A stretch of 64,000 bases of DNA from Botryllus schlosseri. Its lineage: Eukaryota. This document shows positions 9,954 through 56,300 of this stretch, in pieces; the first letter of the stretch is position 1; each line of letters starts with the position of its first letter. A program made the position numbers and the translations under genes. The stretch covers positions 4,838,001 through 4,902,000 of the forward strand of contig CM119372.1 of assembly GCA_051294905.1 (NCBI GenBank), in the 5' to 3' direction. The notes under the pieces were generated by a model. It ran no database searches, was not told where the DNA came from, and saw nothing but the letters and a program-made list of their open reading frames with translations.

Positions 9954-10034
9954 GGGAGCAAACAGCTAGGTAGTTTCAAGTTGTGGAACGTGGCCAGAGA
10001 TCCACACCTGTGACTGCCTGTTTGTCGACCTCCC
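9954..10034 (+). ncRNA. mir-196: miR-196 precursor hairpin; mature 5p about 9967-9988 UAGGUAGUUUCAAGUUGUGGAA
   Basis: 18/22 identity to vertebrate miR-196a (first 12 nt identical). The 3' arm TCCACACCTGTGACTGCCTG (10001-10020) pairs with the 5' arm; basal GGGAG/CTCCC pairing; UG at -14 (9953-9954) and CNNC (CTTC 10040-10043). Confidence 0.92.
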
Positions 10035-10060
10035 GCAAGCTTCTACGACAGGGTATTTAA

Positions 10061-10116
10061 CAGTGTCGAATGGTGATCCAGGGACCAAGTTAGCCCTGGA
10101 TCGTTGTTGACCATGG
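10061..10116 (+). ncRNA. Unassigned pre-miRNA-like hairpin between mir-196 and the mir-10-like hairpin
   Basis: GTCGAATGGTGATCCAGGG pairs with CCCTGGATCGTTGTTGAC (18 bp including four G:U pairs and one bulge), 10-nt loop. The G:U pattern only works on the + strand. Confidence 0.45.
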
Positions 10117-10170
10117 TTGGCGGTATGGTACTAAAGCTTAATGAATTATGGAAGACTATCTATATAGTTA

Positions 10171-10249
10171 GCAATGTTTCGTTTACCCTGTTATGTAAGA
10201 CTTGTGAATAAATGCGCAAGTCTTATCCCCAGGGTGACCGCAATTTTGC
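10171..10249 (+). ncRNA. mir-10: Divergent miR-10-family precursor hairpin; predicted 5p 10184-10206 UACCCUGUUAUGUAAGACUUGUG
   Basis: Same length, first 8 nt and last 5 nt as miR-10a (UACCCUGUAGAUCCGAAUUUGUG); 14/23 identical. Stems TTACCCTG/CAGGGTGA and TAAGACTTGTG/CGCAAGTCTTA with an 8-nt loop; about 200 nt from mir-196. Confidence 0.68.
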
Positions 10250-11698
10250 GTTAGCTCGCCTGAAACCGGTACGCAAAGCTTAAAAAAGTACATGACTGTG
10301 CAATACACTATTTCTGTTTTGCTCTATCTCGTAGACCCCTAATTTCCGCTACTCAAATGCTAAAAATTGTAGAATATACGATTAGCTGATGCATAAGTAA
10401 ATATATAGGGGGGAATGTTGGTATATATCTGTATCCGATAGTGTATTATTATTACTTGTCGAGAACTCCTTATTTCAGATTTTCTGAGAGAAAAGAATAC
10501 CACGAGTTGGTTGATGGATGATTCAATATATGATCGCGAGATGTGCGTCCCTCACCAATGCTACAACGCGATTCCTCAATTGCGCATGTATAGACCAAAT
10601 GGATGCTTGAAATTGATTTGACAGGAGTGAGTTTATTTGATGTAAACGCCATCGCTGATGGAAAACGGGTAGAGGTATTTTACCATGCGCTGGTTTCAGA
10701 AAAAGGAGGTGGACCAGTTGAAAGATGCCAGCTCCAGAAGACTACTTACTCATCATCAAGACTTGGCAATGTGAATTGAAATTTCAACGCGTGATCGTGT
10801 GCTAGACTTCGTGAACTTTGTTGCTGTAAGCCGCGCAATACAAAAGTTATGGAATACACAAGTTTACTTTTTTCCAATACCTCTGGTCTTCAAATTCAAA
10901 GCTTCGATAATAGCTGGCCTTTCTGTCATGCATTCTTCAGCAACGTAAGGCGTGTCGGAATGGGTCATAATGGAGTAGTTAAGATTTTATTGCCTTCGCG
11001 CTTACAGTTGCAAGCGTTTGATGAGCCGTTTGTCCCAACAAGGGGGACAATTAAATGAAACAATTAGACAGTCGTCTTTTGAAGTTCGTGATAACAAGCC
11101 GTAACGCAGTTCTCCGCTGAATACAGTGCAGTATAGATACGTAGCTATTGTACCGACGTTTTAATCGCCTATCCGAAATGACCCCACGGTTGTTAAAATT
11201 GCTGGCGGTTTGCATTTGGCAGAAGATCAAACGAAACAGCCAATTCGATCAATATGTTAACCGCGCAATCCGCATTACTATTCATTGCGCGCAGCATGGT
11301 AGGCGGAACGCCCAGGCGTCACAAGAGACTGTAGAATCGCTTACTGTCTTTTCAATATACATTCGTTAAGGTACCTCCTAACAACATGCAGTATCACACG
11401 ACAAATGCACATTTAAATGTAATGTATTTCTTGAAGATTTTTCGTATCACATAAAATCATAAAGATTTGAGAGGAAAATATATATAAAAAAAGGAAAACG
11501 TCGTTAAAAAGTACGTTGATATATGGCTCTTGAGTGCGTTGCGTTACGTTGACACGCGTGTTTGTGAGTGGCATCGGACAGAATTCATTATCTTACGTCG
11601 TTTCGGCTTTCGAGTTCAACTCCCTCATGGTTTTATAGTCAGCGGTATGTTTTCAGGTATTCCGCAGCCCGATTATAAAAGGTCGCAGATATTTTCAA

Positions 11699-13597
11699 TC
11701 AGGTGTCCCCTTCTTCTTCTTCGTTATCATCCGACTTCTTATCAGCCGACGGCTGCTCTCTTAATTTCATTCGTTTCTTCTTCATCCTCCTGTTTTGAAA
11801 CCATATCTTGACCTGCCTGTCGTTAAGAAACACCCGCTTGGCAATTTGCAGTCTGTTGCGAGAAAGAAAAACACCCAGCGTTACTCATACGTAAACAAGT
11901 CCGCTAAGGAGTCGAATACTTACCGCAGCTCCCGACTTATGAATTCGTTGGCCAGGAATTCTTTTTCGAGCTCCTGCAGTTGAAATTTGGTGTACGGCTT
12001 CCGCCTTTTCCTGGTCGTTAGCGTGTGAGAATGGTGAAAATGAGAGGGGGTTATACTGATTGGACTGTACGAGAGATGGGAAGGGTAGTGCGTCTGACTG
12101 AAGCTCATCATATCCGGAGCTGTAACGAGGAACATCACACATCACTTTTTGGCACTACAGCGCCCAAACAGTTTTTTTCTTACCTGGAGGCATGTGCGAT
12201 ATATTGTAATCCACCGGCGAGTACGTTTGGGTTTGAGGAGGGTTGTGGAATGCAGGTTTTTGTGGGTGAGGGTAAGTCCCGTGAAATGCAGTAGGCGGGT
12301 ATTGATATGGGATTCTCTGGGCGTAGGGAGACGGATAGGCGGATGAGTGCGGTTCGAACGGGTTGCCGAAGCCAGGCCGTCCGTAGCTGCTTGCGAAATT
12401 CCCCTTTGGATCAAATAAATGACTACCTGCACAAGCGAAAATAAACATTATGACCCATCTCAATCTAAACATGTTTATGTGACCACCAAACCTACCGAAT
12501 GCTTGACTTTCGTATCCCATTGGCGCTCCCTGATAGGGTTGTTGTGTTACTCTAGAGTCGGCAATCTTCTTGTCGTATGGATGCACAGATGAATAACCAT
12601 TAGTGGACTCGGGGTGACCTGGAATCATTGGAAGTAGAGGGCACTTTCCTAAATAGCGGTCTCTCGAAGACGTACCCTGTCTAGAATAATGAATGTCATG
12701 GTCCGCGTTTTCTGACGTCATCTCATCGGCGCATCTGGTTTCGGAATATTCACTTTTGGGGGCGGATGCCGTATTCTCGGCGTGGTTGCGAAAATCTGAT
12801 TTCATAAAAGCCCGATCTTCTGCGGGTACTGAATTGCGTGCTAGCGAGGCTGAGTCGTTTCCCGGCAGCCCCCCTTGATATCCGAACGGCGACTGGGTGG
12901 TATGTGACACGTGGTACGGAGACCTGTCGTTTGAAACAGTTTTAACGGCGTACCGCGAACAGTCGCCAGGATTGCTTAAAAATATGTCCGATTCGGAGTC
13001 GGATTTTTGACACTGTAGCGCGCCGTCCGGACTCCGGTGCGAAGTGCCTGAATTTTGATTCGCTTCAGACTGATCGTTAAGGATTGAGTAGGTTTGCTGC
13101 GGTTGTCCGTCTACAGCCACTATTTCCGAGTCAGAGCACGATATCGTCCTTTGCTGCATGTGGTGTACCAAATTGAGAGGCTGACTGGATTCCGTTAACT
13201 CTGAATTCGCCCGTTCAATATCGGCCAACGATTGCAATCCGTAACGCTTCATGGGCGAGTATCCATTTTTCGGACTATCGTGATTCGCCGGCAGCCTCGG
13301 TCCGTATCCATATTTTGTAGAATCGCCAGTATCCGGGCACCGTCTGTGAGATCGAATTTCATTTTTTGCAACAATCGCTTCCCTCGAAGACCCGACTAAG
13401 CACGGTTCCTTAACAGGGTCCTGGACTTGCGCGGCGTACTGATACGGTCCCCCTGTTACTCCAGGCGCTGCGAAATATTCTCCCTTACCGCTCAATGTGC
13501 TCGGCCTCCAAGACTCAGACACGCATAGTGATATAGGCGCCTGGGACGTGCAGTATAAAGGGTCATAACCGCTACTGTATCCCATAAAAGTCGACAT
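11699..13597 (-). CDS. Hox12: Posterior (Abd-B class) Hox transcription factor, ascidian Hox12 type; 4 exons: 13597-12496, 12426-12184, 12119-11924, 11852-11699; 564 aa
   Basis: The spliced frame gives the homeodomain [60 protein letters not shown]. Three GT-AG introns (69, 64, 71 nt; donors GTAGGT, GTAAGA, GTAAGT) have compatible phases 1, 1, 2. Total 1695 nt ending in TGA. The NEFISRE and RRMKKKR signatures fit PG12-like/ascidian Hox12 (from memory, not from a tree). Confidence 0.9.
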
Positions 13598-16500
13598 AGT
13601 TTATGAAATTAGCTCTTTTCTGCTTCAATTTTAGTTTTGTTTTAAGACCCGCAAAGCAGTAAACCGCGGAATAACGATATTCGGCAACGTATATGGTTAG
13701 TTCTGAACACAGAAAAATCAGACCAGTAGAATAGCAGTAAATATTTAGCGCTCAATAAAATGGCCTTATGTTACCTCACAAACCGCCAACAAAGGCGCTG
13801 CTCGCGCTCTAACTGAAATCACTCCTCAATGTTATTTTCCGAAGCCGCCTGCTACCTTAGAGTACAATCATCTGATAATTTCATTCCTTCAGACTGGCAT
13901 TGCTACGATCAAGAAGGTGTTTGTCGTTACACAGCACCAGTCATATGCCGACAGCGGTGCTTGCTCGATGGACACGGCAAACAAAACAAAATGGACATCG
14001 CGCCCAATATAGGCGATCGCGTAAATGCGTATTGTTTCGCCCGTGATTTCGCAAATGGAGAGGAACAATTAACGAAAAAGAAGAAAGAAAAATTACCCAC
14101 GAGCTACCTCTCGGGCAAGCCACAAACTTGAAAGTACCGACGAAAACTCCTTGCATTATTCGGAGCAGAGTCTTCATCATCCGTGCTACAGATCTCTGAA
14201 GGCGGTTGTTAGAAACGATGCCCGTTTTGTGTATTTTGAATAACCCTATTTGATTAATACAGTCTTCTATGTCACTGTTTCGAACGGAAAGCGGCTAGAC
14301 AAAGTATCGCTTGCTTCCTCGATGGTAAATTATATTCCTAGAAGCAATCGCCCTACACTCAAGCACAAATGTTGCTGTAAAATGTGCACTCATGTTTCGA
14401 GAAAACGTGATCATCGCATCATCTCAGAGCCCCCTGTCGGAATTTCCATTAGTTACCGTTTTAACTTAACTAGGCGTGCACGTCATAAAAACACATAGAC
14501 GATTGGTAAAAATATAACAGCCATGACCTTACGGCCTGGTCATAGATGAGTATACCTCGGTGCTCGGTACATATTCTACATTCGTCATATTGATTCAGGA
14601 TTGAGTAGTCAGTGGTAGAAATTGCCTTGTAAGCCAAGGTAAATTTGAGCTGTTTGTGACAAGACTGCGGTCTTGAACATCCGCTCGGGGAATTCGGACC
14701 TATTTTGCGTGCGATTTATGACGTTACGACTTCTCCTGTCCTTTTCAAAATTACGTAATAAAGTAGTTGTTAAAAAGTTATTACATATGACGTACCGTTT
14801 TAGACTATACATTTGATACTACATCCCAAACCAAAAGATACGGCCATGCCTAGCACGTTGCTCAGAGCCAGTATTCTAAGCATGGGTTAGCCTCGACCTA
14901 AATTTGCGTCTGCATCTGTTACAATTAAAGATTTCGACAGTGCGCGAATATCATATTCAACCTCAAGTCATAATGAATATTCGTTGTTCTATCAATATTC
15001 AATATCACATACAAGGCCAATAAAATACAATAAGCTTTCATCAACTGCTTTGAACTCGTCGCATAAAACAATTAGATGTCGGTGCGATCAATGACATTTA
15101 CAGGCAAATCGACTGTTGATTCCCACGATACCAAAATCAAGCTCGCACGTGTCAAGATGACTTACTCTACAAATCAAATCTGACGAAAATATTGGCTGTC
15201 TCCTAAAAATTCTCTCCCTGAATCCCGCCATTAGTGACTTGATATCTATAGGGGAGGTTTGGACTTGAAGCGAAAGGTGAACTCTGCAGTACCGTCGGCC
15301 GTACGACTGCCATAAAAGAAATAGTTAGTTGCGTCACGTTAAGAATATTTCAGAAATTCAGCCTTGGATGCGTAGCCCCGGAACACGCGAAATCATCAAG
15401 TTAATCAAATGGAGACGAATGTCAAACGGAAATACTTCCGCTGTCTATAAAGTAAACTGAGGCCGCAAGAGATAAATGCGAACGCCCAGAATATATCTAC
15501 TTAAAAATTACAGTGAAGAGCTCGCCTGACGCATTCCAGAGTAACTAACAAATCGAAAATCTTCGGAGGAATATCTGTATCCAACTATCCATGCACTGGC
15601 TGCCATGCTATTTCAATCTGCAAAGTCAACCAGTGTATATCTAGTGTTGGAAATTACAGCCTTGTGACAGCCATAAATCTGTTCGGTGTTGGGAAGATAT
15701 TCGTAATAGACGGCAAACTAGTGAGGAAGAGCAAGCAAACGTTATTGCAAATATTGACTAATTATTTCGGTGACGCTGATGCAGAGACAGAATGTATCTC
15801 TCAATACGATCAAAATACGGCCCGGAAAATATCATTCTCGTTATTTTACGGCTTAATGAAGTAGTCACGAGGAAACGGGATGAGCAAACTACGCGGATGA
15901 AAGAACAAGTCCTCCACAGCTACATGACAAGCGTTGATCCGCGGAGGATTATTAAAAGGATTATGAAAACTGTTAGCTTTGCAATAAATTTCCACATCCG
16001 CACGCTGTCTGTCACGGAATTTTGAAATGATCCGTAAACATTCACGAGAATAGCATACCCGACTCGTCCGTTACATACCACACAACACCTTTCACCCGCC
16101 TATAAAATATATTACATTGTGAATAAAATACGCCGGGAATATATAAACATATAGGCTACTTCCGTCCACACAGTTTCGTCCTATTTAATCAACCGGACAG
16201 AGAACATGAAGGTATAACCACTGGCACAATAGAACGCCATAAATTCTCGTCGGTCGGGCAGAATACATAAAAACACAGGACGTCGCGCGGGGCCATTAAT
16301 TACACCGTCGCTGTGTCTAATTATGGATGCTAAAACGCATTCATTAATCACATTAGCTGATGTTTGCCCGTCACTTGTAAAGCTACATAACACATTAAGT
16401 ACGTGGGGTTGAATGCAAGAATACCATAGTGTTCAAATGAAATTTACATTTCTTTCTTCATGCACTTTTCTGCGTGGTTGAAAGACTTGTAGCTGTGTTA

Positions 16501-27234: not shown

Positions 27235-29514
27235 CAGGGATTGGGAGCAGCCGTAAATTTGCATTGCTCCAGCTCCGGCCCCGGAGCTTTTTTCTATCAT
27301 ACACTAGCTCCGGCTCCGGCTCTGTAAACTATCGAAGGTGTCTGTCTATATCAGGGGTGGGCAACCCGCGGCCTGCGGGCCATATATGGCCCGGGAGAAG
27401 GTTTTGAGCAACCCGCGAGCTAATTTCCCATTATAGTATCGAAATCCTGTTATATTATCGAAATTGAATTGCTCAGATTGTGAACTTGCAAGGCCAACCA
27501 AAAATATGATTAGTCTGGTCGCGACACTTGGGATGATGATGACTAAAATATCAGTTCCGACGCATTTGCAGATCCAGGGTCCAGCCACATTTTTAGTAAA
27601 TCGTCGTACATTACAATAAACTAAAAGAGTAGTAAAATGTTTCTTCACGCTTCGCGTGTTTAATTGTCACACGATTTCTTGCTTTGTAGCCTACTCTCTC
27701 CTGAAAATGAAAAAACGCCTGATTTAGCCGATTGAGTCTAACTATATTCGCAATTACGAGAGAAAGTATTTTCGCGTTTGCGCTCGCAGAAAGATCGTCG
27801 AGGATGAAATGTAGGCACAAAATGATTGTCGTATATTAGCGGAAATCATCGATATTGATATGTCCAGATGCCGAATAGTCCTGTTCTTGCAAACTGAGCC
27901 CAGCGGGCGGTATACAGTCGACCCACAATATACCCAAGTAATAATAATATTACCTTGGAAATTTTTACGCGTCTGGCGCGGCTAGTGGGCAGCGCACTCG
28001 TTCGTCAATTTCATGTGCATGGCCCTTTAGCCGAAAAGGCTGGCCACCCCTGGTCTATATCGATTACTTATTTACCCGAAGGTTAGTTATCTATAGTAAT
28101 CTAGAGTCTGTCAGCCGTCAGTAACATCGGGTGCAACAACGAAGACGTAGGTGCCGCCGTGTCGGCTTGTGGCGTCATAGTGAATACTTCTCAATTGTCG
28201 ATATCATCATAGTTGCACTAAAACGCACTTTACTCCATGCCATTGCTGTGTACAGTATGAAAATTCTGGTGCGGCGTTTTAACACTGGCACTGTACTCGT
28301 TAACATTAAGCCATACAGCTCAATCCAATCTTTAAATAAGCGATAATTATTCAACTGTAACTGTAGTAAGAGCAATCTGGGCGGACATCACGACCTGATC
28401 AATAGAAATTCGATTTGTACCAAATGGCCAATGGTTTGACGTTCGATATTGGTGCACTCGTTACCAGTCCATCCGGTGTCGATCAAGTTTATCGAAATAT
28501 AATATTTTCCCGTTGAAACAAATCAAATAATCGAATCGAACACTGTGCCATGCACATTGCGCCATGCCCATAACGAATTAAACTATGCAGTATGCACATT
28601 GCACATTTACAAATCACAGTGCGCGATAATCCGGGAATACTAGAGATTAAGCAGACATGAAGAAGGAATTTACGAAACAGATGATTACAAATTGGAAATC
28701 GCGTATCAAATCAGTAATTTGTCTCCAACATAAAATACCATAAGGTCCTGACATCGCATTGAGTAGCTCGCCCCGCGACAATTGTTCGCTGAGTGTAACG
28801 GCGTTTTGGGCTACTCTTCTGCCATCCCCTATTCACGCTCGAAAATCCTTACTGGAGTGAATGACGATCATGCGCAGTAATGAATTCCAATTCGCGTGCA
28901 TAATTGCATACTCAATAACTGTCCAATTTCGCCCACCGATTAAAGAACTATCACGAAAGAACGAGTATTTGGTCATCCGATTCATAGCAACGATGAGATG
29001 GAATTTCTCGGCTCGCGCTCGTTATATCGACATGTGCAACGAAATAACGTTTTTATCCTCTCTCCCGTTTCGCGTAATACATAGTGATCATTATTTTCGA
29101 ACCGTACAATTGGCCAACAAGGTTGTGCTGATGATGAAATTGCGGGTATGCCGAATACCACAATATTCACGGGCATATCTAGCAAAACGAGGTTCGGCAC
29201 TGATATATGAAAATTGAGCATTTAACATATGAATGCTTTGCTGTTAAATCCCAAAGAACATGGTTAGTCGGAAAAGGTCGCGTTAAAGAGGAAAAGATTC
29301 ATAATTTCGCGAAGGCCTGCTGTTGAATTATGTGAACTCAGCAGATATGGTTGTTGCATATATAATAGCATCTTATGAAATATGTCGGAGCCGGAGCTAC
29401 CCCTCAAATAACTAGCTCCAGCTCTGGCTCCGGTTGAATTTTATGTAGAGCTCCGGCTCCGGTCCCAGCTCCGGTAAAAATGCACGGCTCCGGGGCTCCG
29501 GCTCCAAAGCCCTG
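27235..29514. mobile_element. Second family E copy, inverted, inside the first
   Basis: CAGGGATTGGGAGC...GCTCCAAAGCCCTG termini; exact TSD CTGGTAAC (27227-27234, 29515-29522). Confidence 0.88.
27352..28052. mobile_element. hAT-type MITE family B
   Basis: CAGGGGTGG...CCACCCCTG TIRs; exact TSD GTCTATAT. Confidence 0.92.
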
Positions 29515-34698: not shown

Positions 34699-35009
34699 GA
34701 TATTTACAACACCACCTTCCTCACACCCACACGCACCACCGCGCGCCGTCTTACGGGGTCCTCCATCCGCCGCACGGCCACCAACAACTTCACACCGCGC
34801 ACCACCAAAGGAAGAAGCGGCAGCCGTACACCAAGTCGCAGATTGCGCGCCTAGAGAAAGAATATAAGATGAACAACTTCATCACCAGGCAGAAACGAGA
34901 GGAAATATCGCGGGACCTGAAACTCACCGACCGGCAAGTGAAGATTTGGTTTCAGAATCGACGCGTTAAGGATAAGAAATTGCGGCAACGGGAAATTAGA
35001 GAAAATCAG
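34699..35009 (+). CDS. Hox13: Hox13-type gene, homeobox exon
   Basis: His-rich linker, then [61 protein letters not shown]20 and V54 (WFQNRRVK) are PG13 hallmarks. Bounded by TTTTGCAG and CAG|GTGTGC (phase 0). Confidence 0.93.
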
Positions 35010-36139
35010 GTGTGCTGGACATTTCTGTGTTAGCTAATACATCACTGTACAGTGTACAGAATTAGCCTGCATATATAGATCGAGAGTAACACAAGATCGT
35101 AAAGCATGGGTTCTTAAACTATTGGTCGCGAAGGGTATACTTTTGGGTGGCGACCGCACCAGAGCGATCTTATAATATATATGTAATATTTGCTGAATTT
35201 ATTACAACAACAAATGTTTGTACGTTTCTAAGGTAACTGCCGTGGGTAACCTACTATAGCCAATAAGCGAGACACGCAGAAAAGTGATTGCGGCAATACA
35301 GCTTGATACTGAAAATGTACCGACCCTATTTGTATTAAGCAAATTGGTTCGATGTACTGATAAGATTTGTCAGACATTGGTGTCCCCCTTCAGGTAGACT
35401 AATGGACAGGGTCAACTGAAAATCGGTATAAATGACGCGGAATAATCCGGACGTTCGAGAGGATTTTCCTTATTTTTAGTCAACACCAAATCAGTATCGT
35501 AAAAATGTGGGTAGTCCTGGGGTCGAGCCAAAGTGGTGAGAGTTTTAGTCAACACACCAACATTCCCGGTAAATATATCAAAATCAGCTGTTTTTAATTT
35601 CGGCAAACCGAATGAATGAATGAATTTTAAAACTCCTATCGGGATTTCATAATATGGTAACCCTAGTGTTCCCGAAATGGTATAATTTTGGCGGGTTATA
35701 ATCGGGTAGGGAGAGGGAGGAAGAGAGCGGCTAATAACTGAAGCACCTCATATTTTTAATTATTTTTGACTTTTCAGAAATTAAACTATCTGTATTGTCA
35801 ATTGTGTAAGAACAGTAGATTCCTATAGTATCGATTAACAACGTCGGATACCGTGTAACGTGCGTCAACGGAACTATTAGACACAGGCATTTTTGGGTCG
35901 ACCTTTTCCTCCCCGGGACACATGACGATGTGAAGTTTTGGCTAGCATACGCCTTGGCAAAGTGCGTTGCCAAAAAGACCGGCGATCAAACCTTGGTCTG
36001 AAATGACCGTCGCTGGCTGACCGAAACCTTCCATATTGATATGCTCGGTCGTCGAAATAGTCGGCACCAAATAGTCCCGTCCTTGCAATCGGAGCGTCGC
36101 GGTGCCTTCGCGGCCCGCACAGGAAAATAATGCAATGCA

Positions 36140-48129: not shown

Positions 48130-49261
48130 TAGGGTTGCATTTGAAACAAACGGTGTTTTAAAAAATCAATTGAAAACCAACATGTTTTAAACAGTGTTTT
48201 AGTGTTTTAAACAGAGGCCTTAAATTTTTTCTAAGTTGTAAAATTATGCCACAATTGTGTAAATCAGGGGTGGCCAACCTTTTCGGCTAAAGGGCCACAT
48301 TCAATTGATGAACTTGTGCGCGGACCACCAGCCGCGCCATGCGCGTAAAGTTTTCAAAGTTTATAAATGAACTAGGTCAATACTATTATTACTCGAGTAT
48401 ATCACGGGTCTGCTGTATACCGGCGCTGGGCACAGTTCGAAAGGACGGGGCTAATCGGCATCTGGACATATCGATAACGAAGGGTTTCGGTAATATGCGA
48501 CAATCATTTTGTGCCTATACATTTCATCGTCGACGATCTTTCTACGAGCGCAAACGCGAATTGGGAATATAGTTAGACTCAATCTGGTAAATTGGGTGTT
48601 TTTTCATTTTCAGCAGGGGGCAGGTTACCAAGCAAGAAATCGAGTGACAATTAAACACGCGAATCGTTAAGAACAATTTTACTACCATTTTAGTTTATTG
48701 TCATGTACGACGATTTACTAAAAGCGTGACTGGACCCTAGACCTGCAAATGCGTCGGAACTGATATCTTACAGTCATCAACATCCTAAGTGTCGCGGCCA
48801 GACTGATCAAATTTTTGGTTGGCCTTGCAAGTTCACAATACGAGCAGTTCATTTTCGATAATATAATAAATTTAGGAACTTACCTCGCGGGCCACTCAAA
48901 ACCTTCTAGCGGGCCGCATATGGCCCGCGGGCCACGGGTTGGCCACCCCTGGTGTAAATACTTTCGAAAAAAACAAGTTGTATGAGCCCACGGACAATTA
49001 CCATCCGATTTAGCTGACGTATATCGATATGGGATGGTTGGAACCCTCAGAATAGTCGGTTCAATAGTTATAGTCCAGATATTTCTTCAAAGAAGCTATA
49101 TTTACCCTATATTTTCAATTGTCAATATCAAAACATCATAACGCCACAACTGAGTATTCGTGACGTCATGGCTTAAAAACACACTAAAAAATGTTTTAAA
49201 ATAAGGGCCCTGTTTTAAACATGTTTGATTTTTATTGATTTTTGTTTTAAATGCATCCCTA
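48130..49261. mobile_element. MITE family A copy split by a family B insertion
   Basis: TIRs intact; exact TSD CGATCAAT (48122-48129, 49262-49269). Confidence 0.92.
48265..48951. mobile_element. hAT-type MITE family B (CAGGGGTGGCCAAC...GTTGGCCACCCCTG)
   Basis: Perfect TIRs and exact TSD GTGTAAAT; reverse-complement homolog of 27352-28052. Confidence 0.93.
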
Positions 49262-49999
49262 CGATCAATACGAATCCTTTATTTTCTTGATTCCATCCCC
49301 ATTTACGCTTTTTCAAATACGACTGTATAATTCCGCCAGCAGCGGCATCGCAGACAAAACAACTTCGGTATGCCCTTAATTGTCTTTATAATGTCATTAG
49401 CATTACAATATTATTAAGACTATACATGAATTTATTCAATACAATTATCGTTTGGATGAGACTATAGCGGAGGCTTCTCTGTAATGAATACGAACCATAA
49501 TGATCGCCAAATTTTAAGTTATTTTCTGACTTTTCATCCCATTTCGATTATTGAAATGCTCATTTAGCCTTGAAGGCTCAAGATTTGAATTTGCCAACAA
49601 ACCCGACGTAGATAAATTGAAAAGTATCTGAGTACCCCTGTTATAGATTGGTGACACATACACACATGTTGGTTGCATTAAAAAAAATTGTTTTTCAAAA
49701 CCTGTTTTCAGTGGTCATCAGACCATTTGTGGGTCTTTTGCTTCTTGTTATGCGACATAAATCCACTGGGTGAGTTTTGAGACATGACATCAAATGACAG
49801 AACTCCATTTGGGGATGCGATTTCGTCAAGTATTGTTTATGGCCCGAAAATGTCATACTTTGGTATCGCTGGACAACGAACAAAGGTCGCATAATTATGA
49901 GGACGAAAAATTATAAACAGTATATTAAGGACTCGAGATAATTCCACGCTTATATTTCATTGAAAGTATACTTAAAATCGCTAATTTTACTCGACCAGA

Positions 50000-50581
50000 T
50001 TGAAGCGATCACAGCGTATCCGACCTAGAAAATGTCCTGTTTATTTGCATCTTCCTTGGATTGGGAAAGTGTCCAACAGGTTTGAAAAACAAATTAAATC
50101 GTCAGTGAGCCATTGTTTTTCACAAGTAGAACCACAGATAATCTTCATGACGAAATCTCTGATGCCTGCAACGCAAAAGGATGTCCTACCTGCGACAAAT
50201 CAAAGCAACATAATATATGAATACACGTGCCGATGTGACAGTCGGTATGTAGGTCGCACGTCTCAGCGCTTGCAGCAAAGAATTCGCCAGCATGTCCCAC
50301 GGCAAATTAGAATAAATAATGTTTCTCCAACTCCTTCATCGCAGTCTGTTGACACACTGCGTGATTATGATCAAGTTACTGCTTGTAATTCGGCTATTGG
50401 ACAGCATCTCTTATCCCATCCAGAATGTGCTGGTCATTACAATGACAGTCAATTTTCTATACTCGCTCGTGGCCGTTCTCTTTTTCATTTAAAGGTCCTG
50501 GAATCTACGATCATAAAGCTACGAAAGCCGATTCTCTGTCGCCAGAAGGAACGCCTCTACACTCTTGGAATATTTCATTAA
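50000..50581 (+). mobile_element. 5'-truncated Penelope-like retroelement: RT thumb/linker remnant plus GIY-YIG endonuclease ORF
   Basis: Uninterrupted 193-codon frame with VYLHLPWIG, KD.LP, NIIYEYTCRCDSRYVGRTSQRLQQRIRQH, SAIGQHL and LESTIIKLRKPILC motifs typical of the PLE GIY-YIG domain; no true start codon. Confidence 0.88.
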
Positions 50582-52193: not shown

Positions 52194-53377
52194 CAGGGGT
52201 CGCCAACTCAAAATAGGTCGCGGGCCACTTTTCCAAATTCCTGGAGGCCGCGGGCCGCATGACATCAATATCGATATAAAAGTAGGCAACGCAGTTCAAC
52301 AACCACGTCTGATAACTCTACGTTATTACAACGCTGTGCTTTCTAACATAGGCGACGGTTATAGTCACCACAAAAGAACTAATATTTTATTGAACAAACA
52401 CAAATACAACAAAAAGTATCATGATCATCAATGTCATTATATTTTGGACTATGAGCTGTACACGATACCTGACAATGACAACACTCTTTAGCCGCTAAAA
52501 CGGGGGTGGCCAACATTTTTGTAATTCACGGCCGCATTTCGCGTACTCATGTAGCCTGCGGCGACATACCGGTGGTTAGTCGTGATAAACTAGCTGGGGC
52601 CAAATACCCACGTTATCATGTCCATGTCCATTGCCGGTACACTCCGAACTAATCTATATGCACATATCGGCTGACTATGCGCACCAAATCGTTAGTAGTT
52701 TTGTTGTAAAGAGCCACAGAGAACCAATCTGTAGTCGCGCGAAGCGCGAAAAAATTTTCATGTTCATGAGTGAATTTCGTCAATAAATATTAGTATAGTT
52801 TCACATATCACTATAAAATATTTATCCTTTCTCGGCCAATGTGATCAGATTCCCAGATACAGCTGATGCAGGGGGTATCTGCGAAAACTTAGGGTTGTTA
52901 TTACAAGTGTCGACAGCCGCATAATATTCCTTCTACTGCTGCAGATTGGCCACCCATGGATTGAAGAATCAATATTGGGGTTAGCTATACACGGTAGGCC
53001 TACTTGCTAGACAACTATCTCTTCGTAAAGCATGGTCTTTTGGAGCGCCCGAAGTCGTTTTGCAGGCTTCTCGGTCTTGGCAGTGGTGGGCCATTGCACG
53101 TCAAGGCAATATGCCCATTCGTACCAGCAAATTCTTCATCCATGGAATGATATTACCATGCCGAAGCCGTATCAACTAGTGAGTAATAGTAATAGTGGGC
53201 ACATAGAATGGCTCACATTGAAAAACAACAACATTATGTTTCAACTGAAATCAATTTTAGCGTTTCAACATGATTTACTAAGCGTTTTTCTGAATTTTTT
53301 TCAAATCAGGTCGCGGGCCGCAAAATAGGACCTCGCGGGCCGCATGCGGCCCGCGGGCCGCGTGTTGGAGACCCCTG
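52194..53377. mobile_element. hAT-type MITE (CAGGGGTC...GACCCCTG; GCGGGCC repeats) with a nested element at ~52501-52958
   Basis: TIRs and exact TSD ATCTAGTC; the inner CGGGGGTGGCCAA...TTGGCCACCCATG segment is related to 6311-7177. Confidence 0.9.
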
Positions 53378-56300
53378 ATCTAGTCGGTGTTTTCTGCCAC
53401 ATACCATGGTTACTTGTCAGGTCTAACATTGTGTCAAGGCAACCTTGTATGCTGGCAGGCTTGAGTAAAGCAATATTATGACACTTTCAAGGTAGTGAGA
53501 CTGTACTCGTAAGTTAAATCGGTTGGTTTGCTAAACATGATACGCATCCTACACTTCCCGGTGCTAATTGCTCGTGCGATTGTAGGTAGATGTGTCGGAA
53601 GCTTGCAAAAGTACGGCGACTCTCGGTGAAGACAAATCTATCGGATTTTCGTTTTCGTGTGAGAGTAATTGGCAGTTTGGTTAAGTTATCCGGCGTTCTG
53701 GATGTGACGTCGAGTCGAAGCGGTTGGCAACATATATTCAGCCTTAATTGAGGTTAATTACGTCACTCGGCCAAATTAGTCAGTCTAATTCCGAAAACCC
53801 AGGAAAGGACCTCGATATTATTACATACAAGCGAAACGTCGAAGGGATCATAAATTGTCGACTGCAGTAATGGCTGAACTAGTCTGCTATAAGCCCACGG
53901 TATATATTGTTGGTTCCAAATGGCTCATTCGACTAAACGCTGCTTTCCTTCGAAACCTGTTGTGGCCCTGTACAATATACTAGCCACAGATGACTGCTAT
54001 ATTACAAATTTCCCTATGGAGCCTTGGATTTCAATTTATATATATTTTCTCATAAAATTTATTCTTAAAAATATTAAGTATGCCAATAAACGTCTCGACA
54101 TCTCTAAACCGTTCGCATATGCTCACTAAGTATGAATCAATGTAATTGCCACTATGCTTGCCCATAAGATATGCAATGGATCACCAAAAAGTAAGTGAAT
54201 CAAACAGAACCGGGACTGTCTTTCATGAACTCATCTCATGAACTTTCATGAATATCATCGAATGGTGTGCAGCGAACGTTACGCAAATGCGCATATTTAT
54301 GGAAACGGTAAATTAAAATTATTTACATGTATTTGTTAATGTATTCTTTATATAGTGATGTATAGATTATCATAACACACTGTAACCAACACAAATTTAT
54401 CAGACAGTGATACCGCAAGTTTTCACCAGAAAGTTATATTGATGGTTCCAGACGATTATGTCTAGAAAATGATCCAAGACCAAAATTATCTATTTACATT
54501 CACAGTCCTTATTATGGTAATGATTAATTCTATAGTGTGGTGCGTTGATTACGTGAATTGGGTAGCGCACTGGATTTAAGTTACACTCGAGATTAACCTA
54601 TTACATCCACTCAAAGGACAACATTGAATTGGGTCCCGATTTATGAGCTGTGTTTACGGTAATCTACCTTGCCAAAAGTCACTGATATTCTCACTTGTAT
54701 TCTGTTAACTCCATGATGGATATTGAATGTTCCGGAAAGTTGACGTAAATTAAATCATGACCGCGATCAAATTTACAACTCATACGTGGGCCATGCGCAC
54801 TACGCATTGACGAATTCCGGATGATTAAGCTGATTTTCATTTGGTTTTTAAACTCCACGCCTTAAACTGGCGCATGATTTGCATTCGCCAGACGCGACAG
54901 TTGGGACACTTCCGTGAAAACTCACGTAACGTATTAACGGGATCCATGAGTCAACCGTTTGGGTGTAGTTCGGCCCTTCATTTCTCGAACGATGATTCAA
55001 AATGATATCTGTATATGACGGCCGTCAACATCGCGCGCTGAAATCCTTTGAAGATAATGGCGGAGAGTTGTCGGGCGGACAATGTCTTAAGATAAGATCT
55101 GCAGCTCGTAAGGTGTCACGACAATTTCTCGTGATGGCAATTGATGATTGCTCTGATATTCGAGGATTCGTGGGCCGCGAAAGTTGCACCGAACGCAATG
55201 TTATCGGGAACGACAGGGGAGAATAAGTCTTGAAATTCCCGACAACAGAAAGAAGGGATTTCGTGGCATCATATTTTGACTCTCGCCAGTTGCATGTATA
55301 TGCATTGTGTAAATACATGGACACGGTCTTAAAAACATCAGTACGATATGAAATTTTGAAAATGAAAATCTGACAGGACTTGAGAATCGCGGACAGAAAG
55401 TATCGATCCCAATTCGATCCGGAAACTCGGGCTTCTCCGTCATACACCGCTGGAGAGTATTGAGAGGAATTTTGAATGATATTTCGTTTGATCCGTGACC
55501 CGAGGGCACGCAGTGACAAGACAAGTAATCGCAAGTAGCTCGCAACGAGCGCGGGACATGTACGAGAAGAAGAACGAGGAAAAACACTTGAGCCCGGACG
55601 AATAAGAAAAATATTGAGAAAACTATTTCAAGTCAAGTACCAATGTTTGATGGAGGATGTAGCATTCTATCATAGGATCCATCTGCACAATTGACGCGGG
55701 ATGTAAATGAAATTGTTCAATCTCTTTTTCGCCAGAGGGAACGGGATTGGAAAAACAAATAATGACGACGAAACATTAACGAAGTGGGGTGTTAGCTACG
55801 GCGTTCTGAGGTGTCTTGTATATGCAACACACGAACGTGCTCAAAGTCTACACATCATGTGTGAAACAGGTGGAGTAGGAAAAATCAGAAATTAAATCGT
55901 GCTACCGACGAACAGACGTTATATTCAATAATCCGCGACACAGCAATTGCGCGATAGTTGGAGAATGATGGGATTTGTCAGGTATGCGAACATATGCGGT
56001 TGAGCGACACGACGGGTACACCTGCAAGCTTGTCGAGGTGGGATCAAAGTGTTATGAAGTGAGATCTGTTTTGAGATGATGGTATTTACCCCAGCCGACT
56101 AAAAATGAGTGCAAAGTGAAGCGAAGTGTAAACGCGCTCCCATTCGGCGTATATTTTACGGTCGTCAGCTTGTGACGAGTGTGAGTGTACAGATGCTGGA
56201 TGTTATAGCAACAGTTAGTACGGTGTATTCAATTTTTGTAGACTTGGGAGAAAATTGATGCAGGGTATCAGTCAAATATATTTGACAGATTGGTGATATA

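Follow-up and report, generated by a model that had tools for sequence, protein, structure and literature searches.

We examined a 64-kb stretch of the Botryllus schlosseri genome (assembly GCA_051294905.1, contig CM119372.1, positions 4,838,001 to 4,902,000 of the forward strand; hereafter the window), in which a 79-nt hairpin at 10171..10249 (+) had been singled out by an original prediction as a highly divergent miR-10-like gene. We consider it probable that this hairpin is a genuine ascidian microRNA gene, orthologous to Ciona mir-4069, and that it belongs to the miR-10 lineage, from which it has diverged strongly while keeping its place in the posterior Hox region beside mir-196. The sequence forms a stable hairpin, is unique in the genome and is linked to mir-196 and to posterior Hox genes; it has a parallel in Ciona for which small RNA reads exist, and its 5′ arm agrees with amphioxus miR-10c at 16 of 23 positions. 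The Ciona gene is already in miRBase, and its affinity to miR-10 is already in print. New here are the intact miR-10c-like 3′ half and, judging from the sequence, a wider phylogenetic spread of mir-4069.

The hairpin and its genomic controls

The plus-strand letters of 10171..10249 are GCAATGTTTCGTT-TACCCTGTTATGTAAGACTTGTG-AATAAATG-CGCAAGTCTTATCCCCAGGGTGAC-CGCAATTTTGC, in agreement with the sequence and coordinates of the original prediction, and as RNA they fold into one hairpin of −34.1 kcal/mol (z −6.99, equalled by none of 200 shuffles). From the base upward, it comprises a 9-pair lower stem, an 8-pair block (UUACCCUG / CAGGGUGA), then, beyond a small internal loop, a 12-pair upper stem, in which CGCAAGTCTTA of the 3′ arm pairs without interruption with TAAGACTTGTG of the 5′ arm, and an 8-nt loop. 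The predicted mature 5p arm, UACCCUGUUAUGUAAGACUUGUG, occupies 10184..10206 (+); its limits were read from the sequence, and its dominance is presumed from the Ciona orthologue. The 3p arm, CGCAAGUCUUAUCCCCAGGGUGAC, at 10215..10238 (+), is the predicted star strand and pairs with the 5p arm in both the minimum free energy and the centroid structure. UACCCUGU falls at index 14–21 of the hairpin, which has ~35 nt per side, at the depth below the loop expected of a seed-bearing 5′ arm. The three bases preceding ACCCUGU are all U, and the predicted 5p could also begin at 10183 or 10182 (both U). The X6 contigs are identical across the hairpin, and the X12 variants (four substitutions and one 4-nt insertion) all fall at 10046–10095, within the spacer that separates it from mir-196.

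Genome searches covered the 495.5-Mb assembly (219 contigs), in which the 79-mer of the hairpin has one copy. The pattern TACCCTGT-N8-12-TTGTG matches 59 times in the whole genome and 66 times in the reversed control, which is chance level. This frequency speaks for a reading in which there is no microRNA here, and TACCCTGT lies in an inverted repeat that arose by chance or serves another function, for instance within a regulatory element or within the 3′ region of the Hox gene next to it on the minus strand. So do the abundance of stable hairpins, with 18 clusters in the window at −28 kcal/mol with at least 24 pairs, and a lower stem that is unstable in longer context. We nevertheless judge an inverted repeat without a microRNA very unlikely. 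When all 59 matches were folded, 10171..10249 was the strongest (−34.1 kcal/mol) and the sole good fold, the runner-up (−26.6) belonging to a multi-copy repeat family and the others reaching −23.9 or weaker. The motif is properly placed on the 5′ arm, the length of the stem fits a primary microRNA, and the G.U pairs favour the strand of mir-196. Furthermore, the place that corresponds in Ciona, with respect to mir-196, gives rise to an expressed small RNA with a 5p bias, and that RNA has also been sequenced in C. savignyi.

None of the remaining 58 matches has a comparable hairpin, and they were rejected as miR-10-like genes. A locus considered with them, L008 (TACCCTGTAGACATATCTTGTG), has neither a hairpin nor an Rfam match. 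The pattern TACCCTGT-N7-GACTTGTG occurs once in the genome and not at all in the control. Among the 18 hairpin clusters of the window, which are mostly G+C-rich palindromic repeats, 10171..10249 has the most pairs (29). Very stable G+C-rich palindromes on GGCCCGCGGGCC at 27356–27435, 48876–48955 and 53301–53385 look like a dispersed repeat family.

The counterpart in Ciona

The supplements of Hendrix 2010 (PMC2884542) place Ciona mir-196 at Scaffold_81:252622-252674(-) and a gene termed mir-2278 at 252341-252397(-), so that their 5p starts, 252674 and 252397, are separated by ~277 nt on a shared strand. The corresponding 5p starts in the window are 9967 and 10184, 217 nt apart, and the miR-10-like hairpin begins 141 nt downstream of the mir-196 hairpin on the same strand, bearing out the proximity to mir-196 to which the original prediction had pointed. 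In Ciona, the mir-2278 5p (CUACCCUGUCUUUAAGCUG) has 913 reads as compared to 6 for the 3p, and is marked as conserved in C. savignyi, as CTACCCTGTATTTACGCTG (PMC2884542). The miRNA csa-miR-4069, sequenced in C. savignyi, is given as CUACCCUGUAUUUACGCUGUGU (PMC5831862, supplement 1); from this sequence as listed, it follows that mir-2278 is miRBase mir-4069. Passages of a 2012 review (PMC3394115) put miR-4069 in the miR-10 family, with possible seed shifting, describe it as lying with miR-196 upstream of posterior Hox genes, and call it unique to C. intestinalis.

Compared by hand, the window hairpin has the makeup of a mir-4069: a 5′ arm of the (C)UACCCUGU type, followed by U-rich, UAAG-type sequence and a complementary 3′ arm, all on the strand of mir-196, a few hundred nt farther downstream and near posterior Hox genes. 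Both the mir-196 and the miR-10-like sequences of the window differ from those of the two Ciona species. In a manual alignment of two species, the window against the printed fold of the C. intestinalis hairpin, eight pairs of the upper stem are identical, two have both partners replaced (G.U to U-A; U.G to A-U), and the window stem has two complete base pairs more. The original prediction had suspected compensatory change in the 3′ arm, and within this comparison the stem is indeed preserved through two-sided changes.

We found no literature on miR-4069 outside Ciona or on a Mir-10-P1 naming for Ciona, and mir-4069 is absent from the portions of the MirGeneDB 2.0 publication consulted; the Ciona gene may already have a MirGeneDB name as a Mir-10 paralogue. 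The supplements of the Halocynthia and Didemnum microRNA papers contain no mir-4069-like entry (the Didemnum matches are ribosomal RNA alignments), and the methods of those papers would probably miss such a gene.

The Ciona reads also bear on whether the functional product could instead be made from the minus strand, as an antisense microRNA comparable to Drosophila iab-4/iab-8, or from the 3′ arm, leaving the miR-10-like arm as passenger. The minus strand of 10171..10249 does form a more stable fold than its shuffles (−24.4 kcal/mol, z −4.81), that strand also carries the adjacent Hox gene, whose stop is ~1.45 kb away, and antisense microRNAs are reported in a section of PMC2884542 to be common in Ciona. 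Yet the minus-strand fold is 9.7 kcal/mol weaker than that of the plus strand, because four G.U pairs are present on the plus strand only; the conserved blocks are on the plus-strand 5′ arm; and, of 919 Ciona reads, 913 are 5p-arm reads on the strand of mir-196. A product of this kind is therefore highly improbable.

Affinity to miR-10

The 5′ arm at 10184–10206, TACCCTGTTATGTAAGACTTGTG, begins with the (U/A)ACCCUGU typical of the miR-10 family, within a precursor hairpin. It matches zebrafish miR-10a (UACCCUGUAGAUCCGAAUUUGUG, as printed in PMC2148072) at nt 1–8, 17 and 19–23, or 14 of 23 positions, exactly as the original prediction had counted. Amphioxus has three miR-10-type genes on its Hox scaffold Bf_V2_12, all on the plus strand (PMC2728532 supplement): miR-10a (UACCCUGUAGAUCCGAAUUUGU) at 933,250, bfl-miR-10b (AACCCUGUGGAUCCGAUCUUGUGU) at 883,016, and bfl-miR-10c, identical to bbe-miR-10b (UACCCUGUAGAUCCGGACUUGUG), at 795,194. 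By hand count, the window arm, UACCCUGU-UAUGUAA-GACUUGUG, is identical to bfl-miR-10c at nt 1–8 and 16–23, for 16 of 23 positions at the same length and in the same register, and agrees with bfl-miR-10b at 13 of 23. Similarity beyond the seed thus resides in nt 16–23, GACUUGUG. The sequence GACTTGTG is expected ~1.6 times per 128,000 positions (~1e-5 per position), and by our own arithmetic the chance of the 3′ octamer match, given about ten comparators and registers, is roughly 1e-3 or less. Since this octamer is kept here but lost in both Ciona species, the window adds evidence of descent from miR-10 that is unavailable from Ciona.

Transcription of the Hox genes, and of miR-10 with them, runs through the cluster from its posterior to its anterior end. 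On that basis bfl-miR-10c, at the lowest plus-strand coordinate, is expected to be the posteriormost copy, the one between Hox9 and Hox10. Parts of the 2012 review (PMC3394115) put extra amphioxus miR-10 copies between Hox5/6 and Hox9/10; going by the order of coordinates on the plus strand, bfl-mir-10c would be the one said to lie between Hox9 and Hox10. The window hairpin is beside a Hox9/10-type gene and shares 16 of 23 positions with miR-10c, which makes a posterior paralogue that has stayed in place more likely than the relocation that the original prediction had invoked.

Several observations weigh against this assignment. Nucleotides 9–15 (UAUGUAA) have nothing in common with any miR-10 sequence compared (AGAUCCG in bfl-miR-10c). 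A UGUG next to the loop may be a general processing motif, in which case part of the shared 3′ match would not reflect ancestry. The miR-10 covariance model, RF00104, gives no match at its gathering score or at E ≤ 10, a score that serves as a detection criterion and not as a biological definition. When folded with 30 nt of flank on each side, the hairpin keeps its upper two-thirds, and the lower stem is replaced by other local pairings, so that the basal stem needed by Drosha is not secure. The nearest Hox gene is on the strand opposite to the hairpin; in place of the canonical Hox4–Hox5 position on the Hox strand, the hairpin is found beside a posterior-class Hox gene and convergent with it, a location that suits the posterior amphioxus paralogue (PMC3394115) better than the canonical copy. 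At least 842 of the 913 Ciona 5p reads begin one nt upstream, at C-UACCCUGU (seed UACCCUG), with 14 at U and 2 at A among the reads listed (PMC2884542), and the working seed may therefore not be the miR-10 seed. The original prediction had named a shifted seed as grounds for giving up a miR-10-like gene; in part this applies, insofar as the main Ciona product is displaced by that one nucleotide. Finally, a metagenome scan for the mature mir-196 sequence returned three loci, of which L010 and L011 have no hairpin and L012 is a genuine mir-196. The latter, on a 17.8-kb eukaryotic metagenome contig (Ga0210059_1007131), has a mir-196 hairpin at 1491–1570 with a mature sequence identical to that of the window, and shows neither TACCCTG nor a miR-10-like hairpin within 1.5 kb on either side. 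The pairing of mir-196 with the miR-10-like gene is therefore not universal, or has been lost in that organism. This contig shares with the B. schlosseri assembly repeat-like pieces only, namely a palindromic repeat at 2350–2426 that has 76–90% identity to several places in the genome.

Some of these points would also suit a real microRNA, orthologous to mir-4069, that does not derive from miR-10 but is specific to tunicates, having originated de novo or by tandem duplication of mir-196 and having come by a miR-10-like seed through chance or through selection on the same Hox sites. The unrelated central 7 nt, the missing Rfam mir-10 score and the shifted dominant seed in Ciona fit such an origin. 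New microRNAs often arise by local duplication in clusters, and by eye the 5p arms of mir-196 and of the hairpin share UA..GU..AAG..UUGUG. Alignment scores between the two, however, do not rise above chance: shuffles do as well in 1902 of 5000 trials with the 5p arms, in 700 of 5000 with nt 9 onward, and in 206 of 2000 with the whole hairpins. The idea of a tandem duplicate of mir-196 finds no support in these scores. Moreover, an 8-nt 5′ block and an 8-nt 3′ block in register with amphioxus miR-10c would be hard to obtain by convergence, and the hairpin lies in a Hox cluster, where miR-10 paralogues are known according to parts of the 2012 review (PMC3394115). We consequently rate an origin outside miR-10 as unlikely, though the least unlikely of the alternatives, and favour a diverged miR-10 gene.

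Covariance models did not detect the gene, as the original prediction had expected of similarity searches. Rfam gave no match in the whole window at gathering score, and scans at E ≤ 10 returned a weak mir-196, a SNORD113-like match (E 0.28), a nonsignificant mir-57, thermometer and FourU. The mir-57 hit was the lone microRNA-family match on a 91-nt stretch (plus strand 12.3 bits, E 2.9; minus strand 12.5 bits, E 2.6; not significant on either); mir-57 is a nematode relative of miR-10. Over the whole genome, RF00104 at E ≤ 10 produced no matches among the 60 candidates scored out of ~45,133, and the same procedure applied to let-7 as a positive control gave six matches at five loci, with scores of 32–46 bits that are below Rfam gathering. 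By this search, which was not exhaustive, the canonical anterior mir-10 seems to be absent from this genome. An exact 22/22 match to csa-miR-1497 was found in the genome and none in the control; the miR-1497 family is dated to the origin of Tunicata in a portion of PMC5831862. A COX1 search of the assembly, made to test for the ascidian mitochondrial genetic code, gave no mitochondrial match. Contig 9 has four let-7 hairpins in a span of 900 nt (C9:17372761-17373655, −), and a single one is at C11:13146872-13146939 (+); the contig 9 group resembles the multi-copy let-7 cluster described for Ciona (PMC6943042).

That miR-10 was lost or not found in tunicates, as the original prediction had noted, is stated in passages of PMC2148072, PMC2884542 and PMC2728532, and in the first of these the loss serves as an example tying the break-up of the Hox cluster to the loss of Hox-embedded microRNAs. 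A clearly miR-10-derived gene beside mir-196 in a second ascidian lineage outside Ciona would weaken that example, and would place the origin of mir-4069 no later than the ancestor shared by this species and Ciona. Such a gene would further offer a testable scenario for the evolution of chordate posterior Hox microRNAs. In practice, the case shows that seed and synteny together can trace old microRNA families where, in fast-evolving genomes, covariance models fail to detect them. More tentatively, and as less likely than not, we raise a longer history. The miR-10 of the Hox cluster may never have been wholly lost in tunicates, mir-4069 being the direct orthologue of the amphioxus posterior bfl-mir-10c. 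This posterior copy would have existed in the last common chordate ancestor, would have stood beside a newly arisen mir-196 in the ancestor of tunicates and vertebrates, and would later have been lost in vertebrates, while tunicates lost the anterior canonical copy. If so, the less diverged window sequence, with its intact 3′ octamer, is the link that exposes that history, and the question of whether mir-196 originated at that very locus is reopened.

Neighbours, proposed function and known systems

The mir-196 hairpin at 9958..10029 (+), with the mature sequence UAGGUAGUUUCAAGUUGUGG starting at 9967, scores 22.7 bits with Rfam RF00256 (E 0.015), short of that family's gathering score, 55.4. 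With flanks it folds at −35.2 kcal/mol, and it holds the sole exact copy of the mature sequence in the genome. That sequence is 1 nt from the miR-196 of Ciona and 1 nt from that of Halocynthia, and it ends in GUUGUGG, as in both of those, compared to GUUGUUGG in the Rfam consensus. The 141-nt spacer at 10030..10170 (+) is presumed, from the short distance and the shared strand, to belong to a common primary transcript. At 10097–10163 (+) it has the weak SNORD113-like C/D-box match (20.3 bits, E 0.28), which is probably noise. At 10048–10055 (+) it contains ACAGGGTA, a perfect complement to nt 1–8 of the predicted miR-10-like RNA on what would be the same transcript, which may be due to chance.

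The nearest Hox gene is a posterior one on the minus strand (11699..13600), recognized by translation, with a long first-exon open reading frame (ORF) at 12155–13600. Its homeodomain is split by an intron into parts at ~11929–12033 and 11702–11854, with a stop just below 11702, ~1.45 kb from the miR-10-like hairpin. The intron is short (11854–11929), follows approximately residue 30 of the homeodomain and leads into a downstream exon that is preceded by a pyrimidine tract and CAG. In the homeodomain, the N-terminal half has its best matches in Abd-B, HoxC9, HoxA13/B13 and HoxA9, and the C-terminal half resembles Antp/Ftz and HoxC9/A9 more than Hox13; because of the matches of both halves, we label the gene Hox9/10-type. 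No homologues of its 481-amino-acid first exon were found. A second posterior-class Hox gene contributes a homeodomain exon at 34782..35009 on the microRNA strand (+; Pfam Homeodomain, E 1.7e-20), whose best natural matches in the PDB are Abd-B, HoxC9/A9 and HoxB13/A13 (Hox13-like). An ORF at 49985–50581 (+) weakly matches the GIY-YIG nuclease (E 7.8e-4, short of the Pfam cut-off) and may belong to a mobile element, Penelope-like or other, within the Hox region.

Poly(A) RNA sequencing (X24) placed 19 reads from ~6% of the run, 15 of them partly, and none across 10171–10245; X21 gave no reads, and the X12 contigs stop at 10164 and resume at 10309. On how the gene is expressed in this species, which arm is chosen, where exactly the 5′ end falls, whether the two hairpins are co-transcribed and what is targeted, we infer the following. 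The mir-196 and miR-10-like hairpins would be transcribed as one plus-strand primary transcript, from which Drosha/DGCR8 and then Dicer would free a ~22-nt duplex. The 5′ arm would enter Argonaute, its loading being favoured because it begins with U and its 5′ end is weakly paired (U-A, U.G, A-U), whereas the 5′ end of the 3p lies in G-C pairs by the loop. Once loaded, it would repress through a miR-10-type seed, ACCCUGU if the start is 10184 or UACCCUG if, like the Ciona RNA, it starts one nt before that. Plausible targets, on the analogy of miR-10 and miR-196, are Hox mRNAs. Seed matches are not enriched in the window: ACAGGGTA occurs 4 times (1.18 expected), one occurrence being the hairpin itself, ACAGGGT 7 times (4.71 expected), CAGGGTA 5 times (3.93 expected) and ACTACCT 5 times (3.71 expected). 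Two candidate target sites stand out by location, an 8-mer seed match at 12673–12680 (−) within a coding exon, that of the Hox9/10-type gene next to the hairpin, and a 7-mer seed match at 35406–35412 (+), ~400 nt past the homeodomain exon of the other posterior Hox gene.

Among known systems, mir-196 (RF00256) is the immediate neighbour on the same strand, with the same posterior Hox location and a 5p arm that likewise ends in UUGUG(G), but its seed is AGGUAGU. Canonical mir-10 (RF00104) shares the first 8 nt, the 3′ UUGUG, a product from the 5′ arm (predicted here) and the linkage to the Hox cluster; unlike it, the window gene is not between Hox4 and Hox5, has a rewritten centre, receives no Rfam score and has an uncertain seed register. 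The amphioxus bfl-mir-10c, also on a Hox scaffold, has a 23-nt 5p arm identical at nt 1–8 and 16–23 and different at nt 9–15; amphioxus is said to lack mir-196, miR-196 being conserved in Olfactores according to a passage of PMC3394115, so that bfl-mir-10c would have no mir-196 neighbour. Ciona mir-4069 is likewise a same-strand hairpin a few hundred nt downstream of mir-196 and near posterior Hox genes (for Ciona, as given in part of PMC3394115). By hand comparison, the two have in common a 5′ arm of UACCCUGU, then a U-rich stretch, UAAG/UACG and CU(U)G.G, and a 3′ arm of AG.CUUA...C.GGG; the 5p-dominant products are those known in Ciona, and the window gene is compared from its sequence. Beyond the 8-mer the sequences differ, the window loop is 8 nt and that of Ciona larger, and the base preceding UACCCUGU is U in the window and C in both Ciona species, whereas the 3′ octamer GACUUGUG, lost in both Ciona species, is retained in the window.

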